Positions 20,181-56,260 of a DNA stretch of 64,000 bases are shown in pieces. The notes under the pieces were generated by a model. That model was not told where the DNA came from. It was given only the letters and a program-made list of their open reading frames with translations, and searched no databases. A program made the translations under genes and the position numbers. Source of the DNA: Capsulimonadaceae bacterium (lineage in GTDB: Bacteria > Armatimonadota > Armatimonadia > Armatimonadales > Capsulimonadaceae). How positions within the stretch are numbered: position 1 is the stretch's first letter; the number at the start of each line of letters is the position of its first letter. The stretch covers positions 1,568,001-1,632,000 of the forward strand of contig OZ244065.1 in NCBI GenBank assembly GCA_965215505.1, given 5' to 3'.

Positions 20181-20217
20181 GTGCAGGGTTTTCGAATTAA
20201 ACCGCCCACGCCTCGCG

Positions 20218-20315
20218 CCCGCTTCCCTCCGCCGGCATGACCCGGATCAGGTTGATTGGGGTTGGCGCGCGACACGCGCCTCTCAGCCGGGACACAGCCC
20301 GGCACCCCCAGCGGC
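20218..20315 (-). ncRNA. TPP riboswitch
   Basis: Minus strand GGGGTGC...GCTGAGA...ACCC...ACCTGATCCGGGTCATGCCGGCGGAGGGAAG upstream of thiC. Confidence 0.95.
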
Positions 20316-20336
20316 CTCACAAAGTTGTCTGGTCGT

Positions 20337-46621: not shown

Positions 46622-49620
46622 GCGTGTTTTCCTTCCAATAGCTTTAGCAGACTATCCAGCGGATAGGTCTTGCCGGCCTGGGTTTCCAATCTCGTCGTCC
46701 GGTCGCCAAGGCGCACGGCGCACGGGCCGCCGACGTGGGAAAGAATCGCGACTCGCGTCAGCCTGCCCTCGTGCCAGGTCATATTTACCTCAAAGCCGCC
46801 CCGCGCCCGCAGGCCGCCCACCGAGCCGGAAGGCCAGGCGGAGGGCAGGGACGGGAGCAGGTGCAGGTCGCCCTCGTGGCTTTGCAGAAGCATCTCGCAG
46901 ACCCCGGAGACCGCGCCGAAGTTGCCGTCTATTTGGAACGGCGGGTGCAGGTCGAACAGGTTGGGGGCGGTCCGGTCCGGCGTCAGCAGCATCCGGACCA
47001 GCTTGTGGGCGTGGTCGCCGTCCCCGAGACGCGCCCAGAGGTTGATCTTCCAGGCCAGCGACCAGCCGGTCGCCTCGTCCCCGCGCGTCTCCAGCGACTT
47101 GCGGGCGGCGTCAAACAGGGCGGGGGTCCCGCGCCGGGTGATCTGGTGGCTGGGGAACAGGCCGTACAGGTGCGAGACGTGCCGGTGGTGCTGCTCCGGT
47201 GCCCCCGCGTCCCAGTCCTCCAGCCACTCCTGGAGCTGACCCGCCTGCCCGATCTGCATGGGGGCGAGACGGACGCGGGCGGCCCGCACCTGGGCGCGGA
47301 AGTCGGCGTCCGTGCCTAGAACCTCGGACGCCTGGGCGCAGGCGTCGAAGAGGTCGCGCAAAATCTGCATGTCCATCGTCGGCCCCGCGCAGACGTTCGC
47401 TCCGGGGTGGTGCGGGTTTTCGGGCGACACGGAGGGGTTCGTGACCAGCCACTTGTGCGTCGGCTCCTCGACCAGCGTGTCTAAAAAGAACTCCCCCGCA
47501 CCCTTCATCATGGGGTAATGGGTCTTCAAAGCCTCTTTGTCGCGCGTGAACTCGTAGTGGTCCCAGAACGATTTACACAACCATGCGCCGCCGGTCGGCC
47601 ACATCCCCGGCTCGGCGTAGTCCACGGGGGCAGTCCCGCGCCAGCCGTCGGTGTTGTGGTGGCAGACCCAGCCGCCCGCGCCGTACTGCACTCTGGCCGT
47701 GTTCCTCCCTGCGTCCGCCAGCTCGCCGATCATGCTGAACAGGGGCGCGTAGCACTCCAACAGGTTGGCCGGTGCCGCAGGCCAGTAGTTCATCTCCGTG
47801 TTGATGTTGACCGTGTACTTGCTGCCCCACGGCGGGGAGAGGCTGTCGTTCCACAGCCCTTGCAGTGTGGCGGGCTGGCCGCCGGGCCGTGAGCAGGACA
47901 GGAGCAAATAGCGGCCATACTGGAAGTGCAGGGCGGCGAGCGCGGGGTCGCGTCCATCAGCAAACGCCTTGACGCGCTCGTCGGTCGGCCTGCTTGCGGC
48001 CTCCGTCGCGCCGAGATCGAGGGCGACGCGGCGGAAGGGACGCTGGTGGTTGGCGACATGAGCATCACGCAGCTTAGCGTATGGGCTGCGGGTGGCCTGT
48101 TCCAAGAAGCCCGCAGCCAACCGAGAGGGATCTCCGCTGGCATCGCGGTAGCTCTTGTAGCCGGTGCCGACGGACACCAGCACGGTCACGGTATCGGCAC
48201 CCGTCACAGTCAATCGCCCGTCCCCCGCATGAACCGTCCCACCTTCGGCCTTAGCCCATGCCAGCGCCTGGAAGTGGACGGCTCCCTTGACGCCGTTCGC
48301 GTCACCGCTAATACCGTGCAGAGCGAGTGTGTTTACGTCGGGTACAGTCACCTCGGATTTCTGCGGGCTGTCGAGGGCAGCGGTAAACGAGATACTGCCT
48401 GGCCTGTCCGCCGTCAGGCGCATGACCAGCACTTGGTGAACGGCGCTGATGAAGCACTCGCGGGTGTAGTGGACGCCGCCCGTCGTATAAGACACGCGGG
48501 CGATAGCCGTGTCCAGGTCTAGTTCGCGGCGGTAGTCGGACACCATGCCGGGCGCGGGGAAGTCGAGCGTCAGATGGCCGACGGTCTGGTAAGGCAGCTC
48601 GGGCGCGGGGATGCCCATGAACTTGGCATTGATGAGCGCCTGGGCCTCGTGCCACTCGCCGTCAACGATCAAGCGGCGTATCTCCGGCAGGACCGCCAGA
48701 CCCTCGGGATTGGCGGGAGTGTAAGGGCCGCCCGCCCAGATGGTCCCTTCGTTAAGCTGAAGCCGCTCGGTCTCGACGCCGCCGTAGACCATCGCGGCCA
48801 GGCGGCCGTTACCGAGCGGCAAGGCTTCCAGCCATTTTTTGGCCGGGCGGCGATACCAGAGCGCGAGCGGCTGCGTCGGCGGTGAGGCTTCCCCGGTGAA
48901 TATCACGTTCCTGTCTCCTGTCTCGGCCCCCAGCCTCAGAGTCACCGTCCCGGCAAGGGGCGCGATAACGCGGCCCGGCGCACTTGTGAACCGCCAGTCA
49001 CCCAACACGACGGGCAGCACAGCCGCCGACTGCGGTCCGGACGCGGCGCGGCGGGCGATCTCCGCCGCCGCCAATGCTCGCCCGTATACGGCGGCCCGCA
49101 GGATGCGGCCATGGAAGCGGTTCTCCCCGTTCGGGTCCATCCCGACCCGCAGCGGAACCGGTGCCGGAGCCAGTGGCGGGAACGCGCTGTCCGTGACGCG
49201 GGCGACCTCCTTGCCGTCAACATAAAGCGCCATGACCTTCCGCGAGGCACTGTAGACGCCGGCAACGTGGGTCCAATGGTCACTAGACAAGTGGGCATTG
49301 TAGGAACACTGGCCTTTGGCCGTGATGAGGCGGAGGGAGTTGCCGGGGTAGGTGTCCAGCAAAAAGCCGGCGTTAGTCCCCGGCGGCGACTTGTCGAGGA
49401 TGCGCCCTCCCCCCTGCGGCATGAGGTCCGCCTTCACCCAGGCTTCCAGCGTGACGGCATCAGCACGATCGAGGGCGCGTTCCCCGGCGGCCTGATAGAT
49501 CGGCCCGTTCTCAGACAGCGCCAGCCCTCCGGGCGCGGGCGTGTCCGCCCGGCTTGAGCGTTGGAGGGATGCAGCGGCTAGGGCGGCGAGACCCGCTTGA
49601 AGGAACTGACGACGTTTCAT
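46618..49620 (-). CDS. GH95 alpha-L-fucosidase with Tat signal and LamG domain
   Basis: RRQFL, LWY.RPA..W.EALPLGNG, FQYGRYLL, NINTEMNYW, HRHVSHL, FQIDGNFG. Confidence 0.92.
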   Translation of the reverse strand: MKRRQFLQAGLAALAAASLQRSSRADTPAPGGLALSENGPIYQAAGERALDRADAVTLEAWVKADLMPQGGGRILDKSPPGTNAGFLLDTYPGNSLRLITAKGQCSYNAHLSSDHWTHVAGVYSASRKVMALYVDGKEVARVTDSAFPPLAPAPVPLRVGMDPNGENRFHGRILRAAVYGRALAAAEIARRAASGPQSAAVLPVVLGDWRFTSAPGRVIAPLAGTVTLRLGAETGDRNVIFTGEASPPTQPLALWYRRPAKKWLEALPLGNGRLAAMVYGGVETERLQLNEGTIWAGGPYTPANPEGLAVLPEIRRLIVDGEWHEAQALINAKFMGIPAPELPYQTVGHLTLDFPAPGMVSDYRRELDLDTAIARVSYTTGGVHYTRECFISAVHQVLVMRLTADRPGSISFTAALDSPQKSEVTVPDVNTLALHGISGDANGVKGAVHFQALAWAKAEGGTVHAGDGRLTVTGADTVTVLVSVGTGYKSYRDASGDPSRLAAGFLEQATRSPYAKLRDAHVANHQRPFRRVALDLGATEAASRPTDERVKAFADGRDPALAALHFQYGRYLLLSCSRPGGQPATLQGLWNDSLSPPWGSKYTVNINTEMNYWPAAPANLLECYAPLFSMIGELADAGRNTARVQYGAGGWVCHHNTDGWRGTAPVDYAEPGMWPTGGAWLCKSFWDHYEFTRDKEALKTHYPMMKGAGEFFLDTLVEEPTHKWLVTNPSVSPENPHHPGANVCAGPTMDMQILRDLFDACAQASEVLGTDADFRAQVRAARVRLAPMQIGQAGQLQEWLEDWDAGAPEQHHRHVSHLYGLFPSHQITRRGTPALFDAARKSLETRGDEATGWSLAWKINLWARLGDGDHAHKLVRMLLTPDRTAPNLFDLHPPFQIDGNFGAVSGVCEMLLQSHEGDLHLLPSLPSAWPSGSVGGLRARGGFEVNMTWHEGRLTRVAILSHVGGPCAVRLGDRTTRLETQAGKTYPLDSLLKLLEGKHA

Positions 49621-49643
49621 GGCATGACCTTTGGGACGAGGTT

Positions 49644-50471
49644 TTAGCCATTGTAAGGCCGCCAGGCGGTTTTGTCAAGGCTAGATTTGAGGTGTGGAAC
49701 CGCCACCGGCTTAGGCTGCACGGTCAGGGTACTGCTGTCGTCCCGCTGCATCTCACAGATGCTGCAAATCATCAGATTTGTGCGCGGCGATCTCAGCCGG
49801 GAAGCAGGTTTGCGGAATGAGTGGCCGCACTCCAGCATGAATTGAACAGCAGACCCAGATCGGTTCAGCGTTGCTACCTGCCCCGTAGATGTGATCCCAC
49901 GCCAAAGCGAATCGGCGGCGACAATGGACTGCCATTCATAGGCCAAAGCCGGCACCGGACAAGGGCCGACATAGTCCAGAAACTTTTGCACACGACCGCC
50001 CCTCAGGTAGAGCGCGTTGTTTGTCTTGAGGCGGAAGTCCAACCCATGCTGTGACAGTTTTGGCAGCAGATCGAGCAGCGCTCGCTGTTCAAAACCATAG
50101 GTGCCTAACTCGATCTGCTGAAGTCTTTTCTTCGCATCAGCCATCAGAAACCCGTCACCGAGACACTCCGTCAGCAGCAGCGAAGGCGTCACTACTAGAC
50201 CCGGCAATAATTGCTTCTTCCTATTCGGATACCATCGGGCGTAGGCTGAAGCGTAAACAGGGTCGGTTCGGGTATCCAACAACCAATACTGGTAATTACC
50301 GGAAGGAGGGAGGCCACTAATGCGGGACGTGGTAGGGAGCTAAGAGCTGACACGCTCTAGAAACGTCGGCTCTTTGCAGGTCTGCTGGTAACGGGATTAA
50401 CGGCACTGGCTGGGGATCGTCAGGTTCCCGTCGGACATCAGAATACCATTGAGCAGCTCAATCCATGACAT
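49644..50471 (-). pseudogene. free-standing double-motif LAGLIDADG homing endonuclease with two in-frame stops
   Basis: One frame from ATG 50471: ELLNGILMSDG ... WYPNRKK..P.L.VTP..L....LGDG...IELGTYGF...FLDYVGPCPVPALAY; TAA 50397-50399, TAG 50340-50342. Confidence 0.75.
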
Positions 50472-50500
50472 CTGAAGACCTAACCGTGAGAGATGACACG

Positions 50501-50530
50501 AAGGGCCAGAAGCTAATGCTTCTGGCCCTC
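50501..50530 (-). terminator. hairpin after nrdJ
   Basis: AGGGCCAGAAGC-TAAT-GCTTCTGGCCCT. Confidence 0.65.
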
Positions 50531-50542
50531 CCTTTGTTTAGC

Positions 50543-53500
50543 CTATGAACAGCCCAGGCTCGTGCCGCAGGAAATGCAGCGGTAGCAGGCGCCGTTGCGG
50601 ATCGTGATGGCCCCGCACTCGGGGCAGGGCGGGGCGTCGGACTGCATCCGGTAGATCTCGCGCTCGTGGTCGGCGATGGCCGCCGTGTTGGTGTCTGCGA
50701 GGTGGAACAGGTCGCTGGCCTTGGAGCCGCTGCTGTTGCCGTTCTTGCCATTGCCGCTCCCGTTGCTCAGGCTGCCGCTCTTGGCGTCGTGGGCGGCGGG
50801 GGGCGGCGGGGCCGGGAGCTTCGCGGGGGCGGCGGCGTAGGCCGGGTCGTCCTGGTCGGCGATCAGGCCGACGTTGTGGCGGTCCTCCTTCTGCAAGAAG
50901 CGCAGGGCGAGATACCGGAAGATGTAGTCCATGACGGACTTCGCCATGGGGATCTCTTTGTTGCCGGTGAAGCCGGACGGCTCGAAGCGGGAGTGGATGA
51001 ACTTGTCTACGAGCGTCGAGAGCGGGACCCCATACTGCAAGGCCAGCGAGATGGCGGTGGCGAAGCTGTCCATCAGGCCGGAGATGCTGGAGCCTTCCTT
51101 AGACATGCGGATGAAGATCTCGCCGGGCTGGTTGGTGTCCGGGTACAGGCCGACGGTCAGGTAGCCCTCGTGGCCGCCGATGCTGAACTTGTGGGTGAGG
51201 CCCGCGCGCTCGTCAGGCAGGCGGCGGCGGACGGCCTTCGGCGTGGCGAGGGGCGCGGCCTCCGCTGTCTGCATGGCCTTCTTCTCGGCGGGCGCTTCCT
51301 TGCTGGTGTTCAGCGGCTGGGTGCGCTTGGAGCCGTCCCGGTAGATGGCGACGGCCTTGATGCCCAGCTTCCAGGCCTCCATGTAGGTTTCGGCGATGTC
51401 GTCGGGCGTGGCGTCGTTGGGGACATTGACGGTCTTCGAGATCGCGCCCGAGATGAAGGGCTGGGCGGCGGCCATCATCTTGATGTGGCCCCGGTAATGG
51501 ATCGAGCGCGTCCCGTTCATCGGGCGGAAGGCGCAGTCGAAGATCGGCAGGTGTTCCGGGTCAAGGTCTGGGGCGCCCTCGATGGTGTCGTGTTCGTCAA
51601 TGAATTTGATGATGCCTTCCACCTGCGCCTCGTCGTAGCCGAGCCGCTGCAAGGCCTCGGGGACGGTCTGGTTGACGATCTTCATCATGCCGCCGCCGAC
51701 GAGAGACTTGTACTTGACGATGGCGATGTCCGGCTCGATGCCGGTCGTATCGCAGTCCATCAAAAATCCAATGGTCCCTGTGGGCGCGAGGACGGTGGAC
51801 TGCGCGTTGCGGTAGCCCGAGGCCTCGCCCTCCTCCAGTGCCTCGTCCCAGGCGGTGCGGGCGGCATCGAGCAGGGTGTCGGGGATCAGGGCGGCGTTGA
51901 TCTGGTCCACATGGTCGCGGTGCTTGTGCATGACGCGCAGCATCGGCTCGCGGTTCTCGGCGAAGCCGGCGAACGGCCCGCCGCAGTCGCGGGCGACGAG
52001 GGCGGACTGGTGGTAGGCCCGGCCCGTCATCAGTGCGGTGACGGCCCCGGCGTAGGCGCGGCCCGCGTCGCTGTCGTAGGGCAGGCCCGCCGCCATGAGC
52101 AGCGCGCCGAGGTTGGCGTAGCCCAGGCCCAGGGGCCGGAACTCGTGCGAGCGCCGCTCGATCTTGTCCGTCGGGTAGGAGGCGAACCCGACGACGATCT
52201 CCTGGGCCGTGATCATGATCCTGACTGCGTGGTCGAACGAGTCGGTGTCGAAGGCCGCCGTGCCCTCCTGCCGGAACTTCATGAGATTAAGCGACGATAA
52301 ATTACAGGCAGTGCTATTAAGGAAGAAAAACTCCGAACATGGATTAGATGCGTGGATGCGATCCGTGTTCGCGCAGGTGTGCCAGTCGTTTGCGGTGGTG
52401 TCGTACTGCATGCCGGGATCGCCGCAGACCCAGGTGCCTTCGGCGATGCTGTGCAGCAGGTCCTTCGCGCGGAAGGTTTCGGCGGTCTTGCCGGACATGC
52501 GGAACTTGGTGTCCCAGGTGGCATCGGCCTCGACCGCCTGCATGAACTCGTCGGTAACGCGGACGCTGTGGTTGGCGTTCTGGAAGGGGACGGTGTCGTA
52601 GGCACCGCCCGCGACATTGAACGCGCCCGAGTAGCCGGCGTCAATGAGGGCGTGGGCCTTCAGCTCGGCGTCCTTTTTGCAGTCGATGAACTCTTTGACG
52701 TCCGGATGGTCAATGTTCAGGACGCGCATGCAGGCCGCGCGGCGGGTGCTGCCGCCGCTCTTGATGCTGCCCGCCGAGGCGTCCAGGCCCTTCATGAAGG
52801 AGATCGGCCCGCTGGACCGGCCCCCGGCCTCCAGCGGCTCCTTGGAGGAGCGGAGGGTGGACAAGTTTAGGCCCGACCCGGAGCCGTCTTTGAAGAGCAT
52901 GCCCTCGGTCTTGTAGAGGTCTAAAATGCTCTCCATTGTGTCATCAACTTCATTTATATAGCAGGCACTCACAGCTTGACGTCTGCTTGCCCACCCCAGG
53001 TTGAACCAGACGGGGCTGTTGAAGGCGGCGTACTGGTGCAGGAGGATGAAGCGCAGCTCGTCGTGGAAGGCCTCGGCGTCGGCCTCGGTGGCGAAGTAGC
53101 TGCCCTGCTTGCCCCACTCCAGGATGCGGTCTGCGACGCGGCCGATGAGCTGCTTGACGCTGTACTCGCGCTCCAGGGTGCCGATCTGGCCCCGGAAGTA
53201 CTTGGAGACGACGACATTGGTGGCGAGCTGCGACCACTCCTTGGGGATTTCGACGCCGTTCTGCTCGAAGACGACGGCGCCGTCGCTGCCGACGATGCTG
53301 GCGTTGCGGAGTTCCCACTGGACGCTGGCCCACACGTCCTGGCCGGCCTGGGTGTAGCGGCGCGGGATGGAGAGGCCGGGGGAGTTCGTTTTGGCAGTTT
53401 TTGCGGTGCCGTTCTTCGGCGCGGCGGGTGCCTTGGGGGCCGTCTTGGCGGCGGGGGCGGGCGAAACGGGGGGCATGGGTTCTTGTTCTGTTTCTAATCT

Positions 53501-54100
53501 CTGTTCGACTTCGGGCGCGGCCACGGGGTCCGCGAATGCTTCCAGGTCGGGGCCGGCGACGGCCTCGATGACAGGCTCGGCAATGGGTTCAGCAGCAGCC
53601 TCTACGATGACGGGTTCAGCCTCGGCTTCCATGACAGGCTGGTCCGCTCCTACGGTCATAGGCTCGACGGCCACCATGAGAGGGGCCTCTTCCTCGTACA
53701 CTTCTTCTGCCGGGGCTTCCTCGTCGGTACGGAGGTTGAAATCCTCCCGTGCGGCGCGCAGGGGGCTGGCGAGCGGGGCCGGCTCGTCGGCCAGCATCCG
53801 GGCCATCACGGTGTCTTCAAACGGGTCGTCCTCGGCGAACGGGTCGGAGGCGTCGTCCAGTTGGGCGATCTGGGACGGGGCGGGGAAGTTGCCGACGGGG
53901 ACATCGGCGGGGTGGCGGGCGTCCAGGTCCACCTCATCGCCGCCGAAGAGGGCACCGCCGATGTCGGCGGGTGCGGCCTGTGCCGCCGGGGCCGGCGCGG
54001 CGGCCTTGCGCGCGGCGCGCGGCGGGGCCGGCTCCTCATCACCCATCAGGTCCAGGGTCGTCCCGGACGTACTCTTTTTCCCGTTGCTTCGCTCTGCCAT
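50543..54100 (-). CDS. nrdJ: class II adenosylcobalamin-dependent ribonucleotide reductase
   Basis: FNSPVWFN, SACY, NPCSE, ACNL, APTGT, GAISKT, YRDG, TSCPD-like domain, terminal CxxC..CxxC..GCS; AGGAG RBS before ATG 54100. Confidence 0.96.
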   Translation of the reverse strand: MAERSNGKKSTSGTTLDLMGDEEPAPPRAARKAAAPAPAAQAAPADIGGALFGGDEVDLDARHPADVPVGNFPAPSQIAQLDDASDPFAEDDPFEDTVMARMLADEPAPLASPLRAAREDFNLRTDEEAPAEEVYEEEAPLMVAVEPMTVGADQPVMEAEAEPVIVEAAAEPIAEPVIEAVAGPDLEAFADPVAAPEVEQRLETEQEPMPPVSPAPAAKTAPKAPAAPKNGTAKTAKTNSPGLSIPRRYTQAGQDVWASVQWELRNASIVGSDGAVVFEQNGVEIPKEWSQLATNVVVSKYFRGQIGTLEREYSVKQLIGRVADRILEWGKQGSYFATEADAEAFHDELRFILLHQYAAFNSPVWFNLGWASRRQAVSACYINEVDDTMESILDLYKTEGMLFKDGSGSGLNLSTLRSSKEPLEAGGRSSGPISFMKGLDASAGSIKSGGSTRRAACMRVLNIDHPDVKEFIDCKKDAELKAHALIDAGYSGAFNVAGGAYDTVPFQNANHSVRVTDEFMQAVEADATWDTKFRMSGKTAETFRAKDLLHSIAEGTWVCGDPGMQYDTTANDWHTCANTDRIHASNPCSEFFFLNSTACNLSSLNLMKFRQEGTAAFDTDSFDHAVRIMITAQEIVVGFASYPTDKIERRSHEFRPLGLGYANLGALLMAAGLPYDSDAGRAYAGAVTALMTGRAYHQSALVARDCGGPFAGFAENREPMLRVMHKHRDHVDQINAALIPDTLLDAARTAWDEALEEGEASGYRNAQSTVLAPTGTIGFLMDCDTTGIEPDIAIVKYKSLVGGGMMKIVNQTVPEALQRLGYDEAQVEGIIKFIDEHDTIEGAPDLDPEHLPIFDCAFRPMNGTRSIHYRGHIKMMAAAQPFISGAISKTVNVPNDATPDDIAETYMEAWKLGIKAVAIYRDGSKRTQPLNTSKEAPAEKKAMQTAEAAPLATPKAVRRRLPDERAGLTHKFSIGGHEGYLTVGLYPDTNQPGEIFIRMSKEGSSISGLMDSFATAISLALQYGVPLSTLVDKFIHSRFEPSGFTGNKEIPMAKSVMDYIFRYLALRFLQKEDRHNVGLIADQDDPAYAAAPAKLPAPPPPAAHDAKSGSLSNGSGNGKNGNSSGSKASDLFHLADTNTAAIADHEREIYRMQSDAPPCPECGAITIRNGACYRCISCGTSLGCS

Positions 54101-54237
54101 ACTGTCTCCTTCTAATTTTTCTGTCCTTGCTGTACCGTTGCATCTTCCGCTGAAGCATTTGTGGTACGTCATGCCGCATAGACACGCACGACGCCCAGAA
54201 TACCTTAACCGAAAATGTCTCGGCGAACAGGAAAAGA

Positions 54238-54435
54238 CTATCGCTTTTTGTTGCCAGTTTCCACTGTAGCCTGTGAGTTGCTTATTTCCACTCTCTTCCC
54301 ATCTGGTGTCGGCTTCGGCAGATTGGGCGGATGAGGCGGCACCCAATTTCTGCCTGCATCTGCATCAGTCATGCTGTAAAATTCGCCGTTCAAGGTTTCA
54401 TCTGCTACAATGGCGGCTTCATCCTTAGATGCCAT
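54238..54435 (-). CDS. small peptide 4 (65 aa, ADAGRNWVPPHPP motif)
   Basis: AAGGAAG RBS; shared motif with the three upstream peptides. Confidence 0.75.
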   Translation of the reverse strand: MASKDEAAIVADETLNGEFYSMTDADAGRNWVPPHPPNLPKPTPDGKRVEISNSQATVETGNKKR

Positions 54436-54442
54436 GAGGCTT

Positions 54443-54601
54443 TCACTTCCTTTTATCCTTGCCATCTTCCGGTGACTTCACTGTGGACGGTTTAGGTGGC
54501 GATGGTGGGGTCCATGCTCGACCAGGATCGCCTTGTGTGTCATCGTGTTCACCTGGCGGAACGTCGTTTGTTAGGATAATGCTCTCGGTATCATCAGGCA
54601 T
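54443..54601 (-). CDS. small peptide 3 (52 aa, GDPGRAWTPPSPP motif)
   Basis: Hand translation MPDDTESIILTNDVPPGEHDDTQGDPGRAWTPPSPPKPSTVKSPEDGKDKRK; absent from the ORF track. Confidence 0.75.
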   Translation of the reverse strand: MPDDTESIILTNDVPPGEHDDTQGDPGRAWTPPSPPKPSTVKSPEDGKDKRK

Positions 54602-54607
54602 GATATA

Positions 54608-54787
54608 CTACTTTCGGCCGCCGCCGTGGTCTTTAGATGGCGGCGGGGGAATAGGTTTCTGAGGTGCTGGAGGTGCATTCCAGTTCCGGCCTGGATCTCC
54701 TGAGTATCTATCCAATACTGGATCAGGCTGAGGCTGTGGCATCGGCAAGTTGCGCGGTTCTGGAATGTCATTGCTCACGCTGGTCAT
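54608..54787 (-). CDS. small peptide 2 (59 aa, GDPGRNWNAPPAP motif)
   Basis: ATGA overlap with peptide 1; MTSVSNDIPEPRNLPMPQPQPDPVLDRYSGDPGRNWNAPPAPQKPIPPPPSKDHGGGRK; absent from the ORF track. Confidence 0.75.
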   Translation of the reverse strand: MTSVSNDIPEPRNLPMPQPQPDPVLDRYSGDPGRNWNAPPAPQKPIPPPPSKDHGGGRK

Positions 54788-54984
54788 GATTTACTATCTG
54801 GTGTGCTGTTGCTACCACCGCTGTTTGTGCTTCCACTTGACTGAGAGGCAGTCGTGTCTGCTTGGGGGGCAGATGGCGTGGGTTTGGAAGGAGCTTTCCA
54901 GCCCCGGCCCGGATCACCTTTGATGGAATCACGCTTATCCGGGCTAACCATCTTTTCCATCGTCATGTTTTTGTCTGATGCCAT
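54784..54984 (-). CDS. small peptide 1 (66 aa, GDPGRGWKAPSKP motif)
   Basis: AGGAG RBS overlapping the upstream stop; shared motif. Confidence 0.8.
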   Translation of the reverse strand: MASDKNMTMEKMVSPDKRDSIKGDPGRGWKAPSKPTPSAPQADTTASQSSGSTNSGGSNSTPDSKS

Positions 54985-54996
54985 TCGTGTTTGCTC

Positions 54997-55743
54997 CTAT
55001 CGTATGTTCATAACCGCGAAGGTGACGATTAATCCCAAGCCAACGATGAATGCTATGGTTGCCGTGAGGTTGAGGGCTTCTGTCAATTTACGGAATGTTT
55101 CCCGCTTTCTAGTGTAGCACTCCGACTTCTTAGTAAAATTTTCTTGTTCACCGTCATCTTTGGACAAAGAACTGTCTTTGTTCGATCTCGCGGCTTCTAC
55201 TGAGTAGGATAAGCTCTTCCGGGAAGCGAAGTATGATACGAGGACGAACACAACTGTCAGGCCTAATGAACCCCAACCTCCACGAAGATACCATAAGTCT
55301 TTAAGTGAGTGCTTGTTGCTGAGAAGCGTACCGATGAACGTCGCGGATAATGCCAAGATGCCACTACTTATGGTCAACAGCAAATTGTCAGCTTTTTCGT
55401 AACTAGCTGCAATCAGTTTCTCTTGCTGTTCCTCATACTTGTCGAAGGAGGCGGATGTGTTCTCCCTAAACTTTTCCCACTCCTTCTCTGCACTATCTTC
55501 TACGCTTCCGGAGGTTGCAGAAGGCGTGATAATTATGGAGGGGACAGTTATACTTATTGTCGCACTGCCAAATGAGAACTGCACATCGCTTGGAAGCCCG
55601 GCAGGGGCAACTTGTGCAGTTGGTGCCGCAAGACCTGAATGTACCTTTCCTTGTGTCGCCTCTACTTTTCGAGGTACAACATTCTGCGGATGATGATTGG
55701 CCGCGCCTGACTCCACCTTTTCACTCTGAAGATCAGTTTTCAA
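54997..55743 (-). CDS. three-TM membrane protein of unknown function
   Basis: DNLLLTISSGILALSATF plus two more hydrophobic helices; low GC. Confidence 0.75.
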   Translation of the reverse strand: MKTDLQSEKVESGAANHHPQNVVPRKVEATQGKVHSGLAAPTAQVAPAGLPSDVQFSFGSATISITVPSIIITPSATSGSVEDSAEKEWEKFRENTSASFDKYEEQQEKLIAASYEKADNLLLTISSGILALSATFIGTLLSNKHSLKDLWYLRGGWGSLGLTVVFVLVSYFASRKSLSYSVEAARSNKDSSLSKDDGEQENFTKKSECYTRKRETFRKLTEALNLTATIAFIVGLGLIVTFAVMNIR

Positions 55744-55771
55744 TCTACTGCCCTCTGTCAGACAAACCCGG

Positions 55772-56260
55772 TCACTCTTTTCGCAGGCGACCGCCCTGCT
55801 TCTTCAGCAGGTTCACGATGTCGCGGAACTGGGTGGCGTCCTCGAACTGGCGGTACACGGACGCGAAGCGCACATAGGCGACCTGGTCGATGCGGCGCAG
55901 GTTCTCCATGACCATCTCGCCGATCTCGGACGACGGGACCTCTTTGTCCAAGCGGTTGGTCAGGGTCCGCTCGATGTCGTCGGAGATGGTCTGCAAAGTT
56001 TCCTCGGAGATCGGGCGCTTCTGGCAGGCCACGCGCAGGGAGCGCAGCAGCTTGTTCCGGTCGAACGGCTCGCGGCGCTGGTGGCCGTCGCGGTCGGGCT
56101 TCTTGACGACGGTGAGCTGCATCTCCTCGATGGTTTCAAACGTGGTGAAGCGCCGCTCGCAGTGCTTGCACTCGCGTCGCCTCTTGATGGCCTCGCCGTC
56201 GCGCATCGGGCGCGAGTCCAGCACGGCGTCGTTGTCATGGCCGCAGTACGGGCACTTCAC
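55772..56260 (-). CDS. nrdR: transcriptional repressor NrdR
   Basis: MKCPYC..VLDSR..IKRRREC..C..RFTTFE, ATP cone, DQVAYVRFASVY. Confidence 0.98.
   Translation of the reverse strand: MKCPYCGHDNDAVLDSRPMRDGEAIKRRRECKHCERRFTTFETIEEMQLTVVKKPDRDGHQRREPFDRNKLLRSLRVACQKRPISEETLQTISDDIERTLTNRLDKEVPSSEIGEMVMENLRRIDQVAYVRFASVYRQFEDATQFRDIVNLLKKQGGRLRKE

Follow-up and report, generated by a model that had tools for sequence, protein, structure and literature searches.

Why does a ribonucleotide reductase gene that otherwise uses mostly G/C-ending codons switch to A/T-ending ones over short stretches of its catalytic region? The question is raised by nrdJ of a Capsulimonadaceae bacterium, within a window of 64,000 nucleotides (positions 1,568,001 to 1,632,000 of contig OZ244065.1, assembly GCA_965215505.1; "the window" means this whole stretch, and coordinates refer to it unless another contig or locus is named). 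An initial annotation, made from the sequence alone, had pointed out three such tracts and read them as scars of homing-endonuclease conflict, left either by synonymous resistance or by co-conversion. In a comparison with related genomes, all three tracts were found to contain insertion points of inteins, which are empty here and occupied in other species of the genus. Intein or endonuclease activity is very probably, in one way or another, the cause of the patches, and we lean towards reading them as empty homing sites of LAGLIDADG inteins circulating in the genus, that is, as footprints of endonuclease conflict.

Host gene and genome

The source genome is a single contig of 6.18 Mb with 66.5% GC and belongs to the Capsulimonadaceae (Armatimonadota); the closest nrdJ relatives among named records are likewise Armatimonadota / Capsulimonadaceae genomes. 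The gene in question is:

50543..54100, minus strand: nrdJ, class II B12-dependent ribonucleotide reductase, intein-free (open reading frame, Pfam, solved relatives)

The open reading frame (ORF) at 50543-54346 (minus strand) has 1267 codons, the frame being open to 54346. The start of nrdJ is likely the ATG at 54100, and the first 82 ORF codons (54101-54346) are probably an AT-rich 5' leader rather than nrdJ coding sequence. The product is extended at the N-terminus by a long low-complexity stretch and ends in a C-terminal zinc-ribbon tail, with Pfam matches to Ribonuc_red_lgC (2.1e-138), Ribonuc_red_2_N (1.8e-22) and TSCPD. Its best solved relatives are vitamin B12-dependent reductases (7b9q, 3.6e-177; 1xje, 1.6e-53). 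Both the barrel and the class II N-terminal domain are present, and the host gene is a class II (adenosylcobalamin-dependent) ribonucleotide reductase. The cysteine motifs NPCSE, SACY and ACNL are conserved in all relatives and can be aligned with 7b9q. We take the NPCSE cysteine to be the finger-loop cysteine, and those of SACY and ACNL to be the redox pair, as in the L. leichmannii and T. maritima enzymes. The GC content at third codon positions (GC3) is 0.857 over the entire nrdJ ORF, and A/T-ending codons make up 9.4% of the catalytic core (last 935 codons).

Detection of the codon patches

Codons were scored by the log-likelihood ratio of a model with 60% A/T-ending codons against the genome's own per-amino-acid frequencies. 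Significance was assessed with 20,000 shuffles permuting synonymous codons inside the catalytic core of nrdJ, among which the maximum score was 13.5 and the 99.9th percentile 9.7. The three tracts, all on the minus strand, scored as follows:

52922-52990, minus strand: patch A (tract 1), codons 453-475, score 19.1, reached in 0 of 20,000 shuffles
52286-52351, minus strand: patch B (tract 2), codons 666-687, score 18.6, reached in 0 of 20,000 shuffles
51761-51781, minus strand: patch C (tract 3), codons 856-862, score 4.4, reached in 61% of shuffles

Patch A spans ASRRQAVSA/CYINEVDDTMESIL (here and below a slash marks an intein insertion point) and comprises 23 codons, of which 22 were scored and 15 end in A/T (share 0.68); its maximal segment is 52922-52990, against 52921-52990 in the initial annotation. 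Patch B spans ASNP/C/SEFFFLNSTACNLSSLN, with 14 of 22 codons A/T-ending (share 0.64), and patch C spans TG/TIGFL, with five of seven. The codon strings and peptide motifs originally quoted agree with the sequence, and the claim of three tracts in a G/C-ending gene was confirmed for the first two, whereas the third is not significant alone (P=0.61 as a gene-wide maximum). Within six codons on either side of its junction, patch C has 4 of 11 codons ending in A/T, above all 41 conserved control windows described below; among random windows of the genome, however, 4 of 12 is attained with P=0.067. A genome-wide scan of 4159 ORFs, called crudely, yielded no more than 32 internal segments (of at most 40 codons) with a score of at least 15, patches A and B among them. 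Patches A and B are real, rare features; patch C is weak taken singly.

Two more A/T-ending segments lie in the N-terminal extension of nrdJ, at 53573-53662 (codons 229-258, score 12.2) and 53480-53512 (codons 279-289, score 10.2), both on the minus strand. They are situated in Ala/Glu/Pro-rich low complexity and coincide with no known intein site.

Inteins at the nrdJ sites in relatives

Proteins were searched in 40 related genomes, mostly metagenome-assembled, the genus being sampled by 24 species genomes (G-numbers are genome labels, G000 being the source genome), and occupancy of nrdJ was scored in 21-22 genus alleles per site. The nrdJ matches of relatives break at fixed query positions inside stop-free frames of up to 2586 residues, and the insertions are canonical inteins (C...HN, then C, S or T). 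The insertion sites are, on the minus strand:

52964/52963, minus strand: site A (QAVSA/CY), before Cys462; empty here, 360-aa intein in four congeners
52340/52339, minus strand: site B (ASNP/CSE), before the NPCSE Cys; empty here, 373-aa intein in seven congeners
52337/52336, minus strand: site B' (ASNPC/SE), after the NPCSE Cys; empty here, 168-aa mini-intein in three congeners
51776/51775, minus strand: site C (APTG/TIGF); empty here, 432-aa intein in five congeners and two sister-family genomes
52424..52429, junction 52427/52426, minus strand: site X (GTWV/CGDPG); empty here, 333-aa LAGLIDADG intein in one congener (G008)
51431..51436, junction 51434/51433, minus strand: site E (AISK/TVN); empty here, 431-aa intein in one congener (G013)
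52745..52750, junction 52748/52747, minus strand: site D (SGGS/TRRA or SGGK/TRRA); 425-aa intein in one sister-family genome only (G037)

Junctions A, B/B' and C all fall within the three patches, and the inteins predicted at these motifs in related nrdJ genes were thus encountered in four congeners at A, ten at B/B' together and five at C. Site A is occupied in G012, G013, G015 and G019 (360 aa) and also in G037 (364 aa), site C in the congeners G001, G008, G013, G018 and G021 and in the sister-family genomes G027 and G040, and G030 carries a 447-aa intein at site B'. The inteins at A (9.4e-14), B (6.7e-19) and C (3.6e-21) match LAGLIDADG_3, as do those at X and E; no LAGLIDADG domain was found in the 168-aa mini-intein of B'. 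Sites X and E are not recoded in the source genome, where 2 of 10 and 1 of 12 codons, respectively, end in A/T.

The source gene itself was said to hold no intein at present, and this was borne out: nrdJ gives one unbroken alignment to intein-free relatives, and a search of the whole genome for the Intein_splicing domain yielded matches in four other ORFs and none in the nrdJ region. In 74 nrdJ loci from other phyla, no further intein site was found beneath the 3' portion of patch B, near ACNL; 56 of these loci are unbroken, and the remaining breaks of at least 98 aa lie at A, B/B' and C, save one overlapping match (locus L208).

Frame breaks were seen in nrdJ of G015 (locus L033; query positions 303/304, 389-396 and 578-580), and gyrA of G024 (region of locus L117) has several in-frame TGA/TAA stops. 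Both are probably long-read assembly errors in metagenome-assembled genomes, not biology.

Controls for conserved motifs

Patches on the most conserved motifs of a protein could have a cause unrelated to inteins, such as rare codons that slow translation for folding, chance, or an assembly artefact. Control windows were therefore taken from conserved stretches of nrdJ, gyrA and dnaA separated from every intein site by 14 codons or more. The 41 overlapping windows with conservation of at least 0.97 have a mean A/T share of 0.045 and a maximum of 0.17, and among 35 non-overlapping windows with conservation of at least 0.9 the mean is 0.068, two windows reaching at least 0.33. Conserved control motifs are more G/C-ending than average, and the patches are not a conserved-motif effect. 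Site D, where no allele of the genus carries an intein, provides an internal control: 0 of 12 codons end in A/T here, and the genus share is 0.14 against a background of 0.21, whereas in the sister family, with one genome occupied, the share is raised (0.31 vs 0.17). In the sister-family genomes G035 and G036, whose nrdJ is intein-free, the A/T share at patches A and B is 0-0.09.

An intein-unrelated cause is largely refuted by these data and is considered highly improbable. Equally conserved other motifs of the same genes are G/C-ending, and the same motifs are unrecoded in lineages whose corresponding site is free of inteins. Conservation would be expected of a pause signal, yet the codons turn over fast between close relatives (see below). 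Chance is opposed by the shuffles, none of which reached the scores of patches A and B, and an artefact by the single contig of the source genome and by related patches in independent assemblies of relatives.

Synonymous turnover in the patches

The initial annotation had predicted locally raised synonymous divergence, and in nrdJ the patches diverge 2-3.5 times as much as the rest of the gene. Synonymous codon differences between the source genome and the three relatives nearest to it were:

G011: patches 25/53, rest of gene 181/780
G012: patches 38/51, rest of gene 158/751
G022: patches 31/54, rest of gene 163/783

In 5000 draws of randomised window sets, the observed patch divergence was reached in at most 0.06% (P<=0.0006). 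The excess is present in each of the six pairings of the four closest genomes (0.47-0.75 in patches vs 0.21-0.27 elsewhere) and in 202 of 210 genus pairs. Retention of ancestral codons in the patches was rejected, as the four closest relatives differ pairwise at 47-75% of synonymous codons there.

Synonymous variation that is higher beside the insertion site than in the remainder of the gene, with its centre at the junction, would also be seen at a mutational hot spot, where repeated endonuclease cuts and error-prone repair act with a GC-to-AT bias and amino-acid changes are purged. Mutagenic repair of this kind is one of two explanations put forward for the raised diversity of exons where they border mobile introns (Repar and Warnecke 2017, PMC5378118; statements on published work here and below refer to excerpts of the papers). 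We regard such a hot spot as improbable as the main explanation. The exchanges between AGY and TCN serine codons described below require two or three coordinated changes via non-synonymous intermediates, the lower A/T content of occupied alleles at the innermost codons only is left unexplained, and survivors of cutting would be altered targets anyway, so that the explanation merges with that of resistance.

Empty sites in other genes of the genome

The pattern is not confined to nrdJ. The genome-wide patch list contains two more sharp patches with very GC-rich flanks, one in gyrA over NFGSIDADPPAAQRYT and one over the dnaA P-loop (PGLGKTHLA). Both coincide with intein sites of relatives: in gyrA, congeners carry inteins at GNFG/SID (site G2) and sister-family genomes at RY/TE, and in dnaA congeners carry one at GLGK/TH. 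LAGLIDADG_3 matches were also found in the inteins of gyrA site G1 and of the dnaA P-loop.

As a control for ascertainment, matches to the intein splicing domain were listed over the 24 genus genomes, 23 of which have at least one, and 40 surrounding regions were mapped onto the source genome. This added sites in dnaB (two), gyrB (two), a DegT-family aminotransferase gene, radA and purL (names of these host genes from Pfam). The resulting set comprises 15 sites, each empty in the source genome and filled by an intein in one or more congeners, namely five in nrdJ, two each in gyrA, dnaB and gyrB, and one each in dnaA, the aminotransferase gene, radA and purL; it is incomplete, as the Intein_splicing profile misses several inteins, e.g. 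those of dnaA. Besides nrdJ, short clusters of A/T-ending codons occur at empty sites of the following genes, all outside the window (coordinates on contig C1 of the source genome):

2913613-2916186 (locus L051): gyrA, cluster from GNFG/SID to RY/TE
3629428-3631209 (locus L052): dnaA, cluster at the P-loop
2973700-2975205 (locus L254): dnaB, clusters at the P-loop and LRE/SGS
5105211-5107370 (locus L255): gyrB, cluster at SAGG/SAK
5329631-5331835 (locus L258): purL, cluster at YGN/SVG

Congeners have inteins at the dnaB P-loop, at dnaB LRE/SGS, at gyrB SAGG/SAK and at purL YGN/SVG. Within six codons on either side of the 15 empty sites, 68 of 172 codons end in A/T, compared with 11.2% genome-wide. 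At least five A/T-ending codons are present at 8 of the 15 sites, a count that a random 12-codon window reaches with P=0.027 (binomial probability 1.4e-9). Of the 11 sites found independently of the patch scan, four have this many (P=1.4e-4).

When the 15 sites are superimposed, the A/T share is 0.55 at codons -3 to -1, 0.44 at codons 0 to +2 and 0.30 over the three codons that adjoin these on each side. A shoulder near 0.2 extends as far as +17, and the baseline is 0.02-0.12 beyond -7 and 0.05-0.14 beyond +18. The signal decays away from the insertion site, as would be required of co-conversion, and the width of the profile matches the size of an endonuclease target.

At gyrA site G2, two congeners carry a 520-aa intein (L126:3664-5223 and L128:3714-5273, both minus strand) in which no Pfam endonuclease family was matched; the His/Asn-rich motifs in its middle may belong to an HNH-type nuclease. 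The same site holds a 157-aa mini form in three other congeners.

Empty versus occupied alleles

Empty and occupied alleles were compared both within the source genome and across the genus. Four inteins are carried by the source genome itself, all outside the window (contig C1):

3448050-3451265: uvrD, intein of 259 aa
3252637-3257874: smc, intein of 559 aa
4305094-4307496: NAD-dependent epimerase/dehydratase gene, intein of 478 aa
449860-453513: recD2, intein of 442 aa

Three of the four have LAGLIDADG matches. Around these occupied sites 11 of 47 codons end in A/T, compared with the 68 of 172 at empty sites (P=0.059); the flanks of the uvrD intein have none among 12. Across the genus, at the five sites with at least four occupied alleles, shares are 0.29-0.42 in occupied and 0.35-0.49 in empty alleles against a background of 0.21, and over six codons on either side empty alleles are higher at seven of eight sites, by small margins that are weak alone.

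The difference is concentrated beside the junction. At codons -2 to +1, 135 of 327 codons are A/T-ending in empty and 44 of 156 in occupied alleles (P=0.006), and in 41 matched nearest-relative pairs the empty allele is higher at codons -3 to 0 in 22, lower in 7 and tied in 12 (sign test P=0.008); as the inner window was picked after inspection of the per-offset table, pairs share genomes and genomes recur across sites, these P values are indicative only and count against the resistance reading to that extent. At the outer codons the shares are equal (210/504 empty, 98/238 occupied), and the same 41 pairs divide into 13 higher, 17 lower and 11 tied.

Individual codons show the contrast as well. 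At nrdJ site B, Ser(-3) is AGY in 9 of 10 occupied and TCN in 10 of 11 empty alleles (P=3e-4); at gyrA G2, Ser(+1) is TCN in all five occupied and AGY in 10 of 16 empty alleles; and at nrdJ site C, Gly(-1) ends in G/C in all five occupied and in A/T in 10 of 16 empty alleles. The serine exchanges alter bases outside the wobble position. In G035, G036 and G033, which are intein-free sister genomes, the codons are arranged AGY...TCG, as they are next to the site-B intein; the empty alleles of the genus therefore look derived.

These flank data bear directly on a rather unlikely alternative, in which the patches are neutral scars, i.e., co-conversion tracts from intein donors of lower GC, left after precise intein loss or spread by recombination and never selected for resistance. 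Co-conversion of extein or exon flanks is an established process, and the equal A/T content of outer flanks in occupied and empty alleles is as it would predict. Import from lower-GC donors also fits the GC3 of the inteins, which is mostly lower than that of the exteins (0.51-0.83 vs 0.65-0.88 in congeners) and in two of the four source-genome inteins far below it (uvrD, 0.62 vs 0.92; recD2, 0.74 vs 0.92), the latter suggesting a fairly recent arrival of these two. Exchange between serine codon families at invariant residues would be easier through conversion than through point mutation. Furthermore, the source genome and G018 agree at 40 of 42 bases of site A despite a difference at 37% of synonymous codons gene-wide, although this sharing is not significant singly (P of about 0.06, hand calculation), and recombination between the two at site A is not claimed.

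Neutral tracts do not, however, predict an excess in empty alleles that is restricted to junction-proximal codons, and the footprint is short and sharp. A haplotype shared with an intein-bearing donor, as co-conversion would have it, was not found among the 24 species genomes of the genus: the source haplotypes at A and B equal no sampled occupied allele, with at least five synonymous differences in the central 10 codons at A and differences in both flanks at B. The patches of the source genome (0.64-0.68 A/T-ending) are also richer in A/T than every sampled intein or occupied flank. A metagenome scan with a degenerate 24-base pattern of site A gave two chance matches in unrelated low-GC DNA with stops and no nrdJ allele, with or without intein; the scan is evidence neither for nor against an intein-bearing allele with these flanks. 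A resistance component beside the junction, on top of a flank signal common to occupied alleles, is favoured but not settled.

Homing-endonuclease conflict as the favoured explanation

The scars of homing-endonuclease conflict proposed in the initial annotation are supported by the inteins at all three motifs and the raised synonymous divergence; the choice it had left between resistance and co-conversion is not settled, and the two are not fully separated. Nothing was found that bears on the intronless homing it had also mentioned. We give some preference to the view that selection against cleavage is among the main causes of the patches. On this account, an intein-less allele matching the endonuclease target (about 30-40 bp) would be cut and converted once intein-bearing DNA enters the cell. 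The targets encode invariant catalytic residues, and therefore only silent changes would be tolerated. Several synonymous changes around the junction would lead to poorer cutting and an allele that remains intein-free; the recoded sites would thus be refractory to cleavage, and selection rather than history would maintain them. Endonucleases would then adapt, and the cycle would restart. Tracts would be carried between lineages by co-conversion in the course of homing and by the loss of inteins through recombination with empty alleles; co-conversion, possibly together with mutagenic repair, would also add the flank variation common to occupied alleles, a point of the scheme that is borne out in part. 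Because about 89% of codons are G/C-ending, nearly any synonymous departure produces an A/T-ending codon, so that the footprint appears as an AT-rich patch.

Several points weigh against resistance as the cause. Four of the 15 empty sites had come to light in the patch scan. Seven of the 15 have only one to four A/T-ending codons and are not clearly recoded (nrdJ X, C and E, gyrA G1, the second gyrB site, and those of the aminotransferase gene and radA). The occupied smc site of the source genome has 5 of 12 codons ending in A/T. Occupied flanks in the genus are also A/T-rich; empty sites thus do not account for the whole signal, some of which accompanies homing itself or results from it. The contrasts between empty and occupied alleles are modest and drawn from related genomes. 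Finally, PI-SceI and PI-PspI cut targets with all wobble positions changed at least as well as the native ones (Barzel et al. 2011, NAR, PMC3159444), and wobble recoding alone may therefore not protect.

A broader proposition, advanced tentatively, is that empty landing sites in essential genes are kept genome-wide in a cleavage-resistant recoded form and constitute a sequence-level record of immunity to homing endonucleases, with changes at the innermost codons and exchanges between serine, arginine and leucine codon families defeating wobble-tolerant enzymes. If true, codon anomalies alone could predict intein targets, immune alleles and the bases read by each endonuclease.

Comparison with known systems

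A full-text literature search on inteins or homing endonucleases and silent change gave, in the excerpts retrieved, no description of recoded empty bacterial intein sites. Co-conversion tracts at the mitochondrial cox1 intron are reportedly used as footprints of past intron presence. Such tracts flank the homing intron in angiosperms (Sanchez-Puerta et al. 2011, PMC3192709) and resemble the present case in being short flank tracts at a homing site in element-free alleles; unlike them, the patches reported here do not match donor flanks, as they equal no sampled intein-bearing allele, extend over about six codons on either side and turn over fast.

The arms-race logic, in which the host escapes solely by silent changes and the endonuclease answers with tolerance, was set out by Barzel et al. 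(2011, PMC3159444) and is the same here; their excerpted work concerns tolerance on the side of the enzyme, not recoded empty genomic sites. In fungal mitochondria, exon diversity is raised at the boundaries of mobile group I and II introns (Repar and Warnecke 2017, Genetics, PMC5378118). There too a conserved host gene varies most beside the sites of homing elements, and the same two candidate causes are considered (co-conversion with import, mutagenic repair). The case described here differs from it in concerning bacterial chromosomal inteins in many genes, with the signal read from a single genome as a codon anomaly at empty sites, and in that empty alleles exceed occupied ones beside the junction.

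In the WHO elements of Torulaspora, cleavage-resistant and sensitive FBA1 alleles differ at the core site of the endonuclease (Coughlan et al. 2020, eLife, PMC7282813). As in nrdJ, an essential host gene has distinct alleles at the target, and WHO homing leads to fast chimeric evolution at the cut site with asymmetric conversion tracts. WHO genes are, however, free-standing and replace the 3' end of FBA1, and resistance was shown experimentally, whereas here the inteins lie within the gene, the changes are purely synonymous and we infer resistance. Invasion-resistant alleles are also described for haloarchaeal mcm, where inteins were inferred to carry at least the last N-extein codon (PNAS Nexus 2023, PMC10643990). 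Empty and occupied alleles again differ systematically at the site and a flanking codon is co-converted on invasion; unlike here, resistance is due to an amino-acid difference (a proline after the site) that blocks splicing, not to synonymous changes affecting cutting. Target-site resistance is named as an idea still to explore for phage inteins in excerpts of a 2025 preprint (10.1101/2025.01.02.630785), and the excerpts of a PRP8 intein paper (PMC1508164) and a Haloferax polB paper (PMC3024317) contain nothing on recoded empty sites. New in this analysis are the test across the whole genome, which is unbiased in part, the profile centred on the junctions, the finding of faster synonymous turnover and the contrast of inner and outer codons between empty and occupied alleles.

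Significance

Homing-cycle theory assumes host escape by silent changes only and the coexistence of alleles that are empty, occupied or resistant; the literature searched offers, as far as the excerpts go, almost no genomic evidence that intein targets escape through silent sites. The genome described here is a natural test bed, in which an extreme GC3 makes recoding visible by eye, 15 empty and four occupied sites are found on one chromosome, and congeners provide matching inteins and endonucleases. Intein insertion sites and likely endonuclease footprints can be flagged from a single genome in this way. As a caution, translation need not be the reason for a local codon anomaly in a conserved motif. 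Engineered homing gene drives, which are limited by resistance alleles that preserve gene function, offer a parallel to this natural pattern.

Additional features of the window

The repressor gene nrdR lies upstream of nrdJ. GC is only 0.52 over 54001-56000, the region upstream of the nrdJ start, which also contains an ORF of 248 aa without Pfam match. An Rfam scan of 49000-56000 and of the whole window found no RNA family in or upstream of nrdJ and no cobalamin riboswitch there, and a riboswitch or other structured RNA was accordingly dropped as a cause of the AT-rich stretches.

The low-GC island listed below (GC 0.48-0.50 vs about 0.66) possibly represents foreign DNA. Among its four ORFs, one matches a zinc ribbon, one a glycine zipper, and two have no Pfam match. 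The thiamine pyrophosphate (TPP) riboswitch was detected with Rfam at 63 bits, against a gathering score of 54.3.

55772-56260, minus strand: nrdR, repressor gene
54997-55743, minus strand: ORF of 248 aa
38001-42000: low-GC island with four plus-strand ORFs
20207-20319, minus strand: TPP riboswitch

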